From IMG/VR virus record IMGVR_UViG_3300034418_009100: a stretch of DNA of 64,000 nucleotides, one strand, 5' to 3'. Each line of letters begins with the position of its first letter. Position 1 is the first letter of the stretch. Shown here piece after piece: positions 25,984-30,240 of the stretch. Under the pieces are notes generated by a model that was not told the origin of the DNA, did not search any database, and was given only the letters and a program-made list of their open reading frames with translations. Origin of the DNA: an uncultured virus (IMG/VR IMGVR_UViG_3300034418_009100) (taxonomy: Duplodnaviria > Heunggongvirae > Uroviricota > Caudoviricetes). Position numbers and translations under genes: made by a program.

Positions 25984-26259
25984 ATGTGGAAATCTACAGC
26001 AACCGTTACTAGTAGCACAGGATGGACATTAGAGCAAATTGCCGTCGCTGTTCAACTATTTGAAAAAGAATTAAACAATGGAAATATTGCAGAACCACCC
26101 CTGCCAGATGAACAAATAGGGTCTTTCGATGAAAGTGGATCTCAGTTTATAAGGTATTACCAAACCGAGGCAGATGCAAATTATTGGATAAATTTATTTG
26201 AAACAACAGTGACTGACCATCCAACATACACTTGGGTCCTTGAAGAAGTGTCTGAGTAA
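25984..26259 (+). CDS. hypothetical protein
   Basis: 91 aa, AGGAG RBS. Confidence 0.7.
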   Translation: MWKSTATVTSSTGWTLEQIAVAVQLFEKELNNGNIAEPPLPDEQIGSFDESGSQFIRYYQTEADANYWINLFETTVTDHPTYTWVLEEVSE

Positions 26260-26278
26260 TGTTATCTGCAGTTAACTG

Positions 26279-26307
26279 TTGACATAAAATCCCCGTTACT
26301 ATATAAT
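26279..26307 (+). promoter_or_regulatory. consensus sigma70 promoter of the tRNA array
   Basis: TTGACA-17 bp-TATAAT. Confidence 0.9.
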
Positions 26308-26316
26308 AAGTCTATT

Positions 26317-26393
26317 GCGCTTGTAGCTCAGTTGGTTAGAGCAGTGGACTCATAATCCATTGGTCGCGGGTTCGAGTCCCTCCGAGCGCACCA
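26317..26393 (+). tRNA. tRNA-CAT (elongator Met or Ile2)
   Basis: cloverleaf, CT-CAT-AA loop, GTTCGAG, encoded CCA; 1:72 paired so not an initiator. Confidence 0.9.
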
Positions 26394-26402
26394 GGTTAAC
26401 AT

Positions 26403-26489
26403 GCCCGGATGGCGAAATCGGTAGACGCCTCAGACTTAAAATCTGATATCCGCATGGGTGTGCCGGTTCGAGTCCGGCTCCGGGCACCA
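26403..26489 (+). tRNA. tRNA-Leu(TAA)
   Basis: TCAGA-CTTAAAA-TCTGA, long variable arm, CCA. Confidence 0.95.
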
Positions 26490-26614
26490 CGAGATTATTA
26501 TGAGTTTAGGTTCATTATACCTTTTGATTCAGTTCTTTAATAAACAAGAAATTTGTTTTTGGGACATTCACCAAGATTAATTTTGGATAAGTACAGTACT
26601 TCAAGGAGAACTGT

Positions 26615-26761
26615 ATGGCAGCAAAATCGAAATTAGGTGAAAAACCCCAAGTCAAATTAAAAATTGAAAAGCGTACCAGTCAAGGTGGCAAAGTCAAACG
26701 CTCGAGCATGAACAAAGGTCGAAAGCGTGGTTTTAAAGCATACCGTGGTCAGGGACGCTAA
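26615..26761 (+). CDS. 48-aa highly basic protein
   Basis: MAAKSKLGEKPQVKLKIEKRTSQGGKVKRSSMNKGRKRGFKAYRGQGR; AAGGAG RBS; not in the ORF track. Confidence 0.8.
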   Translation: MAAKSKLGEKPQVKLKIEKRTSQGGKVKRSSMNKGRKRGFKAYRGQGR

Positions 26762-26771
26762 GTAAACACGT

Positions 26772-26848
26772 TCCCTGGTAGCTCAGTAGGTAGTAGCAAC
26801 GGACTGTTAATCCGTGTGTCGTTGGTTCGAGCCCAACCCGGGGAGCCA
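26772..26848 (+). tRNA. tRNA-Asn(GTT)
   Basis: ACGGA-CTGTTAA-TCCGT, GCCA end. Confidence 0.95.
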
Positions 26849-26855
26849 TTATTTC

Positions 26856-26884
26856 TTGACAACTGTAGTTTTTGCATATATAAT
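26856..26884 (+). promoter_or_regulatory. consensus sigma70 promoter
   Basis: TTGACA-17 bp-TATAAT. Confidence 0.9.
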
Positions 26885-26902
26885 ACAGACATAGAGAGAT
26901 AG

Positions 26903-26978
26903 GCCGTCTTAGCTCAGCAGGTAGAGCAACGGATTTGTAACCCGTAGGTCGCCAGTTCGATTCCGGCAGACGGCACCA
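26903..26978 (+). tRNA. tRNA-Thr(TGT)
   Basis: TT-TGT-AA loop, cloverleaf, ACCA. Confidence 0.93.
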
Positions 26979-27076
26979 TATTAAAGCATATCTAGTCGTA
27001 TGTTGAGCCTATTAGGCCTACAACGGTGTACGATGAAATTGCTGTGTTGTAGTGGCATGGTATGCTTTAATATGGT
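26975..27076 (+). ncRNA. stem-closed cassette E1
   Basis: ACCATATTAAAGCATAT...GTATGCTTTAATATGGT terminal stem around a hairpin cargo. Confidence 0.65.
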
Positions 27077-27080
27077 AAAT

Positions 27081-27165
27081 GCCCCTTTGGCGTAATTGGT
27101 AGCCGCGCTGGATTTAGGTTCCAGTACCGAGAGGTGTGAGGGTTCGAGTCCCTTGGGGGGCACCA
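27081..27165 (+). tRNA. tRNA-Leu(TAG)
   Basis: CTGGA-TTTAGGT-TCCAG, long variable arm, CCA. Confidence 0.95.
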
Positions 27166-27173
27166 TATAGTGT

Positions 27174-27247
27174 GCAGGATTCGTATAGTGGTAATACCTC
27201 AGCCTTCCAAGCTGATGCGAGGAGTTCGATTCTCCTATCCTGCTCCA
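27174..27247 (+). tRNA. tRNA-Gly(TCC)
   Basis: TCAGC-CTTCCAA-GCTGA, TCCA end. Confidence 0.95.
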
Positions 27248-27250
27248 AGT

Positions 27251-27327
27251 CGGGGTGTAGCACAGCCTGGTAGTGCGCTTGGTTTGGGACCAAGATGTCG
27301 GAGGTTCGAATCCTTTCACCCCGACCA
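27251..27327 (+). tRNA. tRNA-Pro(TGG)
   Basis: CTTGG-TTTGGGA-CCAAG, CCA. Confidence 0.95.
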
Positions 27328-27334
27328 TTAAGTT

Positions 27335-27410
27335 GGATCGTTAGCTCAGATGGTAGAGCGTCGGCTTTACACGCCGAATGTCGGCAGTTCGATCCTGTCA
27401 CGATCCACCA
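27335..27410 (+). tRNA. tRNA-Val(TAC)
   Basis: TCGGC-TTTACAC-GCCGA, CCA. Confidence 0.95.
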
Positions 27411-27428
27411 TGCTAAATAATCTACCCT

Positions 27429-27502
27429 GGGGGATTAGTGAAGTGGGATCACGCCAGATTTGCATTCTGGAATCAGGAGTTCGACTCTCCTATCCTCCAC
27501 CA
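27429..27502 (+). tRNA. tRNA-Ala(TGC)
   Basis: CCAGA-TTTGCAT-TCTGG, G3-U70 pair, CCA. Confidence 0.95.
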
Positions 27503-27522
27503 ATTAATACTTTAGTATTATA

Positions 27523-27551
27523 TTGACAGTAATTCAGATTTCACATACAAT
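27523..27551 (+). promoter_or_regulatory. sigma70 promoter with upstream TAATAC-N4-GTATTA palindrome (27505-27520)
   Basis: TTGACA-17 bp-TACAAT. Confidence 0.85.
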
Positions 27552-27562
27552 ACACTTAAGTT

Positions 27563-27623
27563 GACGCACATTAGAGATAAGACGGTACTGGTTCGAAACG
27601 GGACTCCTCGTCTAGTGTGTTTC
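27563..27623 (+). ncRNA. stem-closed cassette E2 (short outer stem)
   Basis: GACGCACATTAGA...TCTAGTGTGTTTC; starts just after the promoter and ends 2 nt before tRNA-Glu. Confidence 0.5.
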
Positions 27624-27625
27624 TT

Positions 27626-27700
27626 GCACGGTTCGTCTATCGGTTAGGACACTGGCCTTTCACGCCGGTAAGAGGGGTTCGATTCCCCTACCGTGTACCA
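27626..27700 (+). tRNA. tRNA-Glu(TTC)
   Basis: CTGGC-CTTTCAC-GCCGG, CCA. Confidence 0.95.
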
Positions 27701-27705
27701 AACAT

Positions 27706-27783
27706 AGTACGGTGGCAGAGTGGCCCAATGCACGGGACTGCAAATCCCGAAAACCGTCGGTTCAAATCCGACCCGTACTTCCA
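27706..27783 (+). tRNA. tRNA-Cys(GCA)
   Basis: CGGGA-CTGCAAA-TCCCG, TCCA end. Confidence 0.95.
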
Positions 27784-27784
27784 G

Positions 27785-27997
27785 AACGTTCCGTGTAGCA
27801 ACGGATACTCCGACCCGGAGGATGAGAAGTGGTGTAGCAACCACGGGTGGTTCCAGTCCAACCGAACTGGCGCTGGCAATGCGATAACGGTCCCCGTCGG
27901 GGAGCGGGTGGAAGGCGTGCGTGATGGTATGCTGTTTAACCGAAAGGTGACAGGGTGCTTGATGCGCTATAATTACCGCCGGGGGATGCAGAGCATT
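27785..27997 (+). ncRNA. unidentified GC-rich structured RNA
   Basis: multiple hairpins, twin GTAGCA loops, GAAA tetraloop, long-range pairings; follows tRNA-Cys directly. Confidence 0.65.
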
Positions 27998-28023
27998 TGT
28001 TAACTTAACAAAGGAGAAGATGT

Positions 28024-28272
28024 ATGCAGTTTATTACATTAAATCAAAGGCACCATCTAGGCCGTCGAGGTTTTAAATACGCATTTGTGTTTAAGACCTA
28101 CTCTCAAGAACGGCCTAGCGAATATGCAATTAGTGAAATGGTAAGGAAAGCAGAAGGCATGGGGTATGATAACACATTCTATGGCAAGAGTCCTGGCAAT
28201 TGCGAGCGCAGGCCTTACTACGTCGGATTTAACAACGAAACAACTGCAACATTGGTACAATTGCAGTTATGA
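28024..28272 (+). CDS. hypothetical protein
   Basis: 82 aa, AAGGAG RBS. Confidence 0.7.
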   Translation: MQFITLNQRHHLGRRGFKYAFVFKTYSQERPSEYAISEMVRKAEGMGYDNTFYGKSPGNCERRPYYVGFNNETTATLVQLQL

Positions 28273-28287
28273 TAAAAGGAGAAAGCA

Positions 28288-28428
28288 ATGAAGCCAAAAC
28301 AAATCGCTAGGCAACGTAACCGCTTCGTTGCTTTGGCATTAATGAGAAAAGCGGGCGCACATCGCAAGTCTAACAAGGCCTTGCGTAGACAACACAAAGC
28401 GTCCTTAGATCAGTCGGTAGAGCAGTAG
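28288..28428 (+). CDS. 46-aa basic protein
   Basis: MKPKQIARQRNRFVALALMRKAGAHRKSNKALRRQHKASLDQSVEQ; AAGGAG RBS; not in the ORF track. Confidence 0.7.
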   Translation: MKPKQIARQRNRFVALALMRKAGAHRKSNKALRRQHKASLDQSVEQ

Positions 28429-28514
28429 ACCATATAAAAACACATCGTCCTAGAAGCAGTGAGATGAAGACACAATAGGCTCACAAGGGGTGTCACGGTG
28501 TGTTTCTATATGGT
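28429..28514 (+). ncRNA. stem-closed cassette E3 with pseudoknot-capable cargo
   Basis: ACCATATAAAAACACATCGT...ACGGTGTGTTTCTATATGGT. Confidence 0.65.
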
Positions 28515-28584
28515 TTGACAAAAGGTGGTATGTAGTCGTTGTCAATGCGGCGAGGACCGGGATTCCTTTCTCAGCAACACTGAG

Positions 28585-28686
28585 ACCATATTGAAGCACA
28601 TTGCCCGCCGTGGTAGGGGAATCGCAAACAGATTGATCACTGTTGCCGATGAGTGGTTCGAATCCAACAGTGTGCTTCAATATGGT
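28585..28686 (+). ncRNA. stem-closed cassette E4 with T-loop-containing cargo
   Basis: ACCATATTGAAGCACATTG...CAGTGTGCTTCAATATGGT; interior GTGGTTCGAATCCA. Confidence 0.7.
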
Positions 28687-28689
28687 AAT

Positions 28690-28776
28690 GGAGATGTAGG
28701 AAAATTGGTAACCCCAGCGGACTGTAAATCCGCCGCCCGAAAGGCACTGTGTGTTCGACTCACACCGTCTCCACCA
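28690..28776 (+). tRNA. tRNA-Tyr(GTA)
   Basis: GCGGA-CTGTAAA-TCCGC, long variable arm, CCA. Confidence 0.95.
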
Positions 28777-28850
28777 TATTGAAGCACATTCTAGGCACGA
28801 TCTTTACTGCAGGTGCCGACGAAAAAGAGACGAGTGTGCTTCAATATGGT
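28773..28850 (+). ncRNA. stem-closed cassette E5 with pseudoknot-capable cargo
   Basis: ACCATATTGAAGCACATTC...GAGTGTGCTTCAATATGGT; overlaps the Tyr CCA and the Asp 5' end. Confidence 0.7.
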
Positions 28851-28922
28851 CTGTTAGTTAAACGGTTATAATAATGGCCTGTCACGCCGTAGTCAGGGGT
28901 TCGACTCCCCTACAGACCGCCA
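28848..28922 (+). tRNA. tRNA-Asp(GTC)
   Basis: ATGGC-CTGTCAC-GCCGT, GCCA end. Confidence 0.95.
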
Positions 28923-28928
28923 AATAAA

Positions 28929-28957
28929 TTTACATACTGATTATAAATCAGTATAAT
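28929..28957 (+). promoter_or_regulatory. sigma70 promoter with palindromic spacer
   Basis: TTTACA-17 bp-TATAAT; TACTGATT..AATCAGTA inverted repeat. Confidence 0.75.
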
Positions 28958-28966
28958 TACTTTAAA

Positions 28967-29053
28967 GGAAGGTTGGCAGAGTGGTAATGCACCGGATTGC
29001 TAATCCGCCGCTCAGAAATGGGCGCACAGGTTCGAGTCCTGTACCTTCCGCCA
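28967..29053 (+). tRNA. tRNA-Ser(GCT)
   Basis: TT-GCT-AA loop, long variable arm, GCCA end. Confidence 0.93.
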
Positions 29054-29057
29054 TATT

Positions 29058-29133
29058 GCGGGATTAGCTCAGTTGGTAGAGCGAATGCTTGCCAAGCATT
29101 AGGTCGTCGGTTCGAACCCGATATCCCGCTCCA
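29058..29133 (+). tRNA. tRNA-Gly(GCC)
   Basis: AATGC-TTGCCAA-GCATT, TCCA end. Confidence 0.95.
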
Positions 29134-29148
29134 CTTTAGTTTATAACT

Positions 29149-30240
29149 TTGATTAATATATATTCTGCTGGTCATGTTTATGGTTTAGAGTTTTTGCCTG
29201 AATCTTATGAAATCTTTAATAATTTAGAAAAAATAAAACTAGCACCAGGCGCACGTCTTGCATTTATAAGCAACGCAGATATCTGGTATTCTTTACCAAG
29301 AGAATTTTTTGATGTAGTTGTTTTTTGGACAACTGAATCGTTATCTTGGGAAAGAACTCAAAACAAACCCATTGTCCCTTTGTCAGATAAAGATATTATT
29401 TTCAGCAGTAGCAAAGGGCCAAACAATGATATGGATCTGCTTTATTGGTATGATTATGTATCTGGGATTTATAAATCAAAGTTTAAAAAATTTTTGCCAA
29501 GCCTTGAAATATCAAATCATAAGTTGTTTTGTAGTTTAGGTAAAGCCAGATTGCCAAGGACTTATGCTTATTGTAAATTCCACGAATTAAATCTAATAAA
29601 ATCTAATCATATAAGTTTTGTTTCACGTAAAATTTATAAAAATATAGAATCCCCTGACAATATGGATTTTGAAGGTCAATCTAAAATGGCAGATTTTGTT
29701 GCAAATTCTTCTATTGACCTACAAGAACCTATAAAAATTAATTTCAAAGATGATTGGAATATCAGTAAGAGGCAAAATGATTGGTATACAAAACTTAGAA
29801 ATACAAACGTAAATGTTTCTGCAATTTTCCCAACTAAAGTGATAAATCAGTCTAGTTTGCTTTTTGTATTTGAAACGGAAATGCATAATTTAGAACACTT
29901 TTCAACAGAAAAAACAGTAAAGGCACTTATTAGTGGAAGACCATCTATTATAATTGCATCTCAAGGTTATCTTGATTATGTTAAAAAACTAGGGTTTAAA
30001 ACATGGGACGGGATTATCGATGAAAAATATCAATATTATTCATGCCATAAAACAAGAATAGACAAAGCAATAAACGAAGCACAACGTTTTTTTTCAACCG
30101 ATGTACTCGGTAGCAAATGCCTACAAAAACAAATTAAAGACATTGCAGTTTACAATAGGAATCATTTATTTCAAACCGACTGGAAATATAACCAAAAAAT
30201 TGCTTGGAACAAAATTTTAAAAAAACTGAAAAATAAATAA
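29149..30240 (+). CDS. AT-rich accessory protein, glycosyltransferase-like
   Basis: FVFETE..FSTEKTVKAL..GRPSIII..LGFKTW..IIDE.Y; start codon uncertain. Confidence 0.55.
   Translation: MINIYSAGHVYGLEFLPESYEIFNNLEKIKLAPGARLAFISNADIWYSLPREFFDVVVFWTTESLSWERTQNKPIVPLSDKDIIFSSSKGPNNDMDLLYWYDYVSGIYKSKFKKFLPSLEISNHKLFCSLGKARLPRTYAYCKFHELNLIKSNHISFVSRKIYKNIESPDNMDFEGQSKMADFVANSSIDLQEPIKINFKDDWNISKRQNDWYTKLRNTNVNVSAIFPTKVINQSSLLFVFETEMHNLEHFSTEKTVKALISGRPSIIIASQGYLDYVKKLGFKTWDGIIDEKYQYYSCHKTRIDKAINEAQRFFSTDVLGSKCLQKQIKDIAVYNRNHLFQTDWKYNQKIAWNKILKKLKNK

Follow-up and report, generated by a model that had tools for sequence, protein, structure and literature searches.

A single-copy gene for a ~210-nt knotted phage RNA, conserved without a fixed neighbor

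What is encoded by the GC-rich stretch that directly follows a tRNA-Cys gene of an uncultured phage, and what might its product do? The window analyzed here (64,000 nts) corresponds to the first 64 kb of the virus record G000, which is 124.6 kb long and is estimated to be 35% complete. G000 represents a jumbo-phage fragment with T4-type terminase, RecA-like, and NAD-synthase genes. Fifteen tRNAs were called within the 64-kb window, and a permuted tmRNA (tag ANDEVFALAA) is located outside it (G000:C1:117050-117444). The main features of the locus are as follows:

27523..27551, + strand: candidate sigma-70-like promoter, by consensus match (11/12) only
27706..27783, + strand: tRNA-Cys(GCA), CCA encoded, directly abutting the 5' end of the RNA
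27784..27997, + strand: the whole RNA gene, by covariance-model bounds (full-length match of 201 bits, single copy in G000), with putative mature ends

A sequence-only reading of this DNA had placed a GC-rich structured RNA directly after tRNA-Cys, and both parts of this description are correct: the first base of the RNA is the one after the CCA of this tRNA, and its GC content is 58%, as compared with 40% for the window and 55-57% for the adjoining tRNAs. The candidate promoter is predicted to drive a unit composed of a short spacer, tRNA-Glu, tRNA-Cys, and the knotted RNA, and no terminator was found within 26200-29300. Folded alone, the window RNA yielded a z score of -0.8, with 44 of 200 shuffles being as stable. 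Since its single-sequence fold is no better than those of shuffles, the case for this RNA rests on its relatives.

A BLAST search with the window RNA and one relative (L033) against 50,697 GenBank phages returned only chance matches of 19-25 nts. The doubled GTGTAGCAAC of the window exceeds chance (1 match, 0/100 shuffles), and this pattern was found at 28 viral loci, 11 of which carry relatives of the RNA. Four viral patterns and one metagenome pattern were used in addition. An anchored parse resulted in at least 411 locus hits among 579 loci, many of these contigs being counted twice and the copies from the window itself being included. At least 248 distinct cores were obtained, and the 248 cores listed form at least 77 clusters at 90% identity and at least 24 at 80%. 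The diverged members were yielded by two patterns without the 5' pseudoknot strands, while most patterns demanded the GGGUGG strand, and therefore the conservation of that strand is overstated. For one pattern without the 5' pseudoknot strands, 10 of 109 stretches were chance matches, and the covariance model gave none of them a full-length match. A pattern able to recover 128 of 160 known cores had 0 matches in 185,579 prokaryote genomes of GTDB; with this recovery rate, diverged cellular copies may exist.

The absence of a credible ORF, as previously noted, stands, though an ORF of 128 aa with a GTG start (27617-28003) crosses the RNA. This ORF had no match in Pfam, its frame contains a stop in 207/220 relatives, and the RNA lengths across relatives span all three frames (77/53/90). 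Thus, a protein-coding gene was rejected for lack of a conserved open frame. With the covariance models of Rfam 15, nothing was matched over 27784-27997 at gathering score or E ≤10, and hence no described family; this includes tmRNA, RNase P, and SRP, whose signatures had been reported as absent. When six relatives were searched against Rfam at E ≤10, the only match was to permuted tmRNA (22.7 bits, cut-off 47), and it starts within the upstream tRNA of L033. None of the ribozyme models matched the window RNA or the six relatives at E ≤10. The literature searched contains no description of the RNA, and four motif strings were absent from its texts. Moreover, PMC10690425 includes a catalogue of viral candidate RNAs (29-151 nts), and six RNA motifs were absent from the searched part of its supplements, whose remaining files could list a fragment.

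Several other elements were observed around the RNA gene. The spacer between promoter and tRNA-Glu (27556-27625) is closed by a helix and includes a T-arm-like GGUUCGAAAC; it folds no better than shuffles, but two RNA runs contain near-identical contigs that cover it. Inside the tRNA array, 26615-26761 contains a 48-aa basic ORF with a weak match to phrog_17967, a phrog without known function. Elements at 26975-27078, 28584-28686, and 28772-28852 (z of -5.2, -5.1, and -7.0, respectively) have long related inverted arms, CCAUAU...AUAUGG, and differing interiors, and a looser element is located near 28428-28515. Two of the inverted-arm elements begin at a tRNA 3' end, and arms resembling theirs were also found 3' of the RNA in several relatives. 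The element at 28584-28686 contains a degenerate fold that resembles a tRNA and scores 20 bits with the tRNA-Sec model (cut-off 47).

The core fold was examined on alignment A1, which contains 55 type-A sequences from 67 representatives at 90%. Under the fold model, 95.4% of cells are paired and 36/52 pairs show two-sided change; none of 500 shuffles scored as high, and slid controls reached 34-43%. These changes, together with the distinct cores described above, provide the covarying homologues on which the proposal of an unnamed phage ncRNA depended, and with conserved relatives and no Rfam match the proposal holds. RNAalifold independently recovered P1-P5 and P8. The fold consists of eight helices (P1-P8) and three long-range pairings (PK1, PK2, and a kiss between loops L1 and L3), and its elements are arranged in the order P0, P1, UA, P2, an A/G-rich linker, P3, a seven-base strand, P4, P5, the 3' arm, and AGCA. 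The elements of the core are:

27787-27788 with 27823-27824, + strand: P0, a tentative and weak 2-bp helix that closes the three-way junction P0/P1/P2
27790..27805, + strand: P1 hairpin, 5/5 pairs with two-sided change, loop L1 at 27795-27800
27808..27820, + strand: P2 hairpin, 3/4 pairs with two-sided change, loop at 27813-27816
27829..27844, + strand: P3 hairpin, 5/5 pairs with two-sided change, loop L3 at 27834-27839
27845..27851, + strand: strand for both pseudoknots, 27845-27848 for PK1 and 27849-27851 for PK2
27853..27870, + strand: P4 hairpin with an 8-nt loop, 4/5 pairs with two-sided change
27871..27883, + strand: P5, a stem of 3 bp and a strongly conserved loop of 7 nts

The first pair of P0 is CG in 52/55 sequences, and the second is GU in 45, CG in 4, GC in 2, and unpaired in 4. 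The P5 loop has what we take to be a T-loop-like pattern. The hairpins CCGT-GTAGCA-ACGG (P1, 27790-27805), GTGGT-GTAGCA-ACCAC (P3, 27829-27844), CCAGT/ACTGG (P4), and CGC/GCG (P5), as well as the GCGG/CCGC pairing (P7), had all been seen in the window sequence, and compensatory changes keep each of them; the long arm capped by ACC-GAAA-GGT is also present, at 27939-27948. The three long-range pairings of the fold had not been noted, and a long-range pairing that had been suggested, CTCCGAC(27808)/GTCGGGG(27896), did not survive the comparison: it is paired in 79.4%, as compared with 78.6% for shuffled columns (95/500 shuffles as high), and CTCC of the first strand pairs locally with GGAG in P2, closing the GACCC loop used in the pseudoknot.

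In PK1, the P2 loop (27813-27816) pairs with 27845-27848; the variants are GAUCC/GGAU in 3 cores and GUCC/GGAC in L391, L434, and L448, and 4 cores are mismatched. In PK2, 27849-27851 pairs with 27861-27863 in the P4 loop, and both sides have changed in 2/55 aligned sequences. The few variant sequences thus lend thin support to PK1 and PK2. The RNAalifold helix GGUGGU/ACCGCC was rejected, as it has no two-sided change and is broken in the pseudoknot variants. A fourth knot might be formed between GC of the P5 loop and GC of the 3' tail, but it is invariant and therefore lacks support from covariation, 10 rows being offset there by the aligner.

For the L1-L3 kiss, the mean complementary run was 3.64 over 69 distinct cognate pairs and 3.07 ± 0.07 when shuffled; 0/2000 shuffles were as high, and 64/69 combinations had a run of at least 3, all of these values including the effect of relatedness. 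Examples of co-changing pairs of L1 and L3 are UGUC/GACA, AUCA/UGAU, AACG/CGUU, and UAGC/GCUA. The window's own kiss is among the weakest, with two G-C pairs. The twin GUAGCA loops emphasized by the sequence-only reading are indeed present in the window, but they are not family-wide and were rejected as a family motif: GUAGCA occurs in both loops in 8 of the 248 cores listed, and in P1 alone in 5. It seems that the twin loops are one lineage's near-self-complementary solution to the kissing contact.

The remaining part of the RNA is composed of the following elements:

27888..27991, + strand: 3' arm, with P6, a 7-nt bulge, P7, an internal loop, and P8
27888-27896 with 27980-27991, + strand: P6, 8/9 pairs with two-sided change
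27897-27903, + strand: 7-nt bulge of the 3' arm
27904-27907 with 27976-27979, + strand: P7, 1/4 pairs with two-sided change
27908-27913 / 27969-27975, + strand: internal loop of the 3' arm
27914-27919 with 27963-27968, + strand: P8, 4/6 pairs with two-sided change
27920..27962, + strand: variable distal arm, a lineage-specific stem with a GAAA cap; the arm folds at z -3.1
27992..27995, + strand: conserved 3' tail AGCA, whose AGC was demanded by the parse

At the base of the distal arm (27920-27962), a bulge (27920-27922) and tandem G-A (27923-27924 with 27961-27962) form a kink-turn-like pattern, which occurs in 104 of the 180 type-A arms listed; the assignment follows what we take to be the kink-turn consensus, a 3-nt bulge and then tandem G-A pairs. 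The 3' arm is modular, with two unrelated forms (type A and a branched type B), and is very short in other members; beyond P7 it is substituted or missing in some relatives, its length ranging from absent to >90 nts. A branched type-B arm in which a CUGA.../AAC internal loop recurs was observed in L001, L015, L021, L053, L080, L105, L106, and L275, and several carriers of type-B arms are away from tRNA arrays. A U-rich stretch follows the AGCA tail in 135/220.

One possible role of the RNA is that of a tRNA clamp like T-box or RNase P, in which UGGU would hold the CCA end and an L1-stalk-like arm the elbow. P6-bulge-P7-loop-P8 parallels E. coli 23S helices 76-78, GGGUGGU presumably resembles the T-box sequence, and the gene usually lies among tRNAs. 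The invariant UGGN of T-boxes is free to pair with the tRNA NCCA; here, however, UGGU has become CCUU jointly with a matching change of the P4 loop (L391, L434, and L448), which means that UGGU pairs internally, and a T-box leader was rejected. In addition, the candidates meet 4/6 core residues of the double T-loop, the arm is missing or substituted in some members, and the covariance model had no match at the E. coli rRNA locus; these observations also led us to reject an L1-stalk-like reading of the arm. A tRNA clamp is therefore very improbable.

The covarying loops may also be read as contacts between molecules, in which case the RNA would form an RNA-only oligomer or cage like manA, ROOL, and GOLLD, different chains being joined by the L1-L3 kiss or by a pseudoknot. 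L1-L3 covaries, L3 is palindromic (UAGCUA) in five cores, and both the setting (phage, near tRNA genes) and the size match manA (<200 nts). According to the accessible part of 10.64898/2026.07.01.735769, manA cages are held together by kissing loops, and, in that of PMC12286853, pairings of ROOL and GOLLD first seen by covariation proved to be intermolecular. On the other hand, the three long-range pairings link nearby elements and could be closed within one chain, a fixed geometry fits poorly with the variable length and two unrelated forms of the outer arm and with the insertions of up to 61 nts found in relatives just after the 27845-27851 strand, beside PK2, and no Rfam match to manA, ROOL, or GOLLD was obtained. 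Hence, we consider a cage unlikely.

At the genome level, the model detected exactly one copy in 22/26 records, all 22 carriers being single-copy. Since 21 carriers had been selected by the presence of the RNA and the four records without it are fragmentary (29-50% complete), this ratio describes copy number, not prevalence. Among relatives selected by terminase, 1/4 such records, which are 29-50% complete fragments, has the RNA. By the identity of their terminases to that of the window, the carriers can be divided into at least two groups: one of 57-77%, including phages of 285-365 kb, and one of 35-36% (G016, G017, and G020). For 111 of the 126 members with long flanks, a tRNA or tmRNA is present in the locus, and the RNA may have a tRNA-linked role for this reason. 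Of these 126 members, 71 begin within 10 nts after a tRNA, which is of 11 kinds; the downstream count of 46 is approximate, because a few 3' ends are mis-set. G003, G005, G007, and G020 have no tRNA within about 4 kb of the RNA, and in three of them the RNA starts 0-7 nts after a stop codon. G005, which is 89% complete, has no tRNA anywhere, though the missing 11% may hide some. A single copy, two distant phage groups, and sites far from tRNA together indicate that neither tRNA processing nor gene regulation is an obligatory role of the RNA.

In L099, the gene is split by a homing-endonuclease-like ORF (L099:544-1341; phrog_314 match, E 2e-14), which lies behind a 5' fragment and directly ahead of a complete copy whose P1/P3 type differs; this arrangement is consistent with selection that keeps the RNA intact. 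It was also observed upstream in L428, L103, and L549. As to other neighbors, the next gene 3' of the RNA in L015/L026, L021, L053, and L062 starts with MARITSEKAVE..., and its product presumably resembles the RNA polymerase omega subunit. In G020, a permuted tmRNA (L663:8724-9001) and the RNA are about 4 kb apart, and the terminase gene at G007:C1:332608-335117 was matched as two pieces ~960 nts apart, possibly owing to an intron or insertion.

Does the RNA exist as a free molecule? Assembled contigs with relatives of the RNA were present in 6/7 runs (five RNA runs and one guessed to be RNA, from six studies) and none in X1; contigs of these runs also cover protein genes, and strand, level, and ends are not readable from them. 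The CCA of the tRNA is still included in contigs ending at 27780-27781, and these ends could be breaks of the assembly. It is quite improbable that the RNA is never freed and acts solely as a cis element (antitermination or stabilizing) on long transcripts. Such an element could be expected from the consistent sense-strand location in the unit (684/684 tRNA calls are on the strand of the RNA), from the frequent position right after a tRNA or stop codon, and from the lack of its own promoter, no fixed -10 box having been found in 108 upstream stretches without tRNA. Nevertheless, the place in the unit varies, including a 3' end just ahead of a new promoter in 14/220, the downstream genes are unrelated among the 126 members with long flanks, and processing of a flanking tRNA would free the RNA. 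A cis-regulatory leader or riboswitch was likewise rejected, on account of the varying downstream neighbors and the alternative GGUGGU/ACCGCC helix without two-sided change.

Without a dedicated promoter, something must make the 5' end of the RNA, and this counts for a ribozyme of a new class, which would cut its own 5' flank (self-release and trimming of the upstream tRNA) or another RNA in trans. The cleavage site would be just 5' of the conserved first helix or on the trans target. The core is compact and multiply knotted with invariant unpaired bases, an A precedes the conserved first C in 219/247, and this C is located 2-5 nts past the tRNA CCA in 87/88 flush cases. However, this offset is not fixed, the RNA persists without an adjacent tRNA, no ribozyme model was matched at E ≤10, and no HDV-type first helix is present at the junction. 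Furthermore, the RNA is single-copy, whereas a cis-acting tRNA-maturing ribozyme, in the available part of PMC10879173, is needed at each tRNA. Both versions of the ribozyme, with the cleavage site that goes with them, are thus rather improbable.

Taken together, the locus is a single-copy gene of a ~210-nt knotted phage ncRNA that is conserved without a fixed neighbor. Being single-copy and position-independent, with invariant unpaired bases and no promoter of its own, the RNA is probably released as a stable molecule that acts in trans. Our preferred reading is a structural RNA that is processed and works in trans, probably serving a conserved protein or complex of the host as decoy or scaffold; we assign it a probability of roughly 45%, the exclusion of cis roles being the reason for a decoy or scaffold. 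The RNA would be cut by host RNases from a longer transcript made from a host promoter, being released when the 3' end of the upstream tRNA is processed or the A/U-rich flanks are cut. P2, PK1, PK2, P4, and P5 may be stacked as one rod with the P5 loop as its cap, P1 and P3 being clamped through their loops and the invariant unpaired bases providing tertiary or partner contacts. Such a compact, nuclease-resistant particle could act in trans, probably by binding and tying up this host target. As the RNA occurs in distant phages without a common neighbor gene, the partner is more plausibly a host one than a phage one, if there is a partner at all.

How does this RNA compare with known systems? 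Its family and fold match nothing searched, while the broad kind, an ornate phage RNA, is already known. The P4 pseudoknot of RNase P RNA is formed by a GAAAGU-type segment and a 3' conserved region. In the knotted RNA, the GAAGU segment runs into P3, the bases past the 3' tail are variable, and Rfam gave no match, and thus RNase P RNA was rejected. RNA C and RNA D of T4 (rnaC, 139 nts, and rnaD, 119 nts; NC_000866.4), the stable RNAs with which the sequence-only reading compared it, are non-tRNA genes flush with a tRNA in a tRNA cluster. The likeness in position is real, since the window RNA lies in a tRNA cluster, on the tRNA strand, and downstream of a shared promoter (by consensus only), but homology was rejected, as covariance model R1 had no match in the T4 tRNA region (L458) at E ≤1. 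Unlike T4 RNA C, the knotted RNA has no tRNA-like T-arm at its end, and unlike both T4 RNAs its family also occurs outside tRNA clusters.

Theta (HDV-like) ribozymes, as described in the available part of PMC10879173, are also pseudoknotted RNAs beginning at a tRNA 3' end, where the cleavage-site G opens a nested double pseudoknot of the HDV type. In comparison, the knotted RNA is much larger, has another helix order, occurs once per genome, and is found also without tRNA; an HDV-like ribozyme was rejected because the 5' end forms a helix of at most 2 bp, the offset from CCA is 2-5 nts, and Rfam has no match. The 3' arm shares with the L1 stalk (E. coli 23S helices 76-78) a helix, a 5' bulge, a short helix, and a 3' loop; however, 2/6 core residues and the register differ, and the arm is dispensable in the knotted RNA. 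The core of the double T-loop module that binds the tRNA elbow is given as AGNNA ... UGNNA in the portion of PMC3664808 consulted, and the module (L1 stalk, RNase P, T-box) was rejected here, as the candidates YGNG(N)A and UAYAA meet only four of these six residues.

The closest likeness in kind is to manA (RF01745), GOLLD, and ROOL. manA is phage-borne, under about 200-250 nts, and has covarying loop-loop contacts, but the available part of 10.64898/2026.07.01.735769 describes it as a putative 5'-UTR element, whereas the knotted RNA has no fixed downstream gene. GOLLD and ROOL are ornate, pseudoknotted, phage-encoded, and often near tRNA genes (PMC12286853, in part), and are several times longer. 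Homology to all three was rejected, since neither the window RNA nor six relatives matched them in Rfam at E ≤10. Covarying kissing loops are shared with them, and L1-L3 could be formed within one chain or between molecules alike. No demonstrated job is given for manA, ROOL, or GOLLD in the consulted parts of 10.64898/2026.07.01.735769 and PMC12286853. With T4 RNA C/D, these are the few phage RNAs of this type described so far. The knotted RNA adds to them an unusually dense new fold, with three long-range pairings within a core of ~100 nts, and one intact gene that is maintained by at least two distant large-phage groups; if either catalysis or a decoy target proved true, it would be a categorically new RNA. 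As it is short and covaries well, with natural minimal and expanded variants, it makes the role of stable non-tRNA RNAs in phage tRNA clusters testable.
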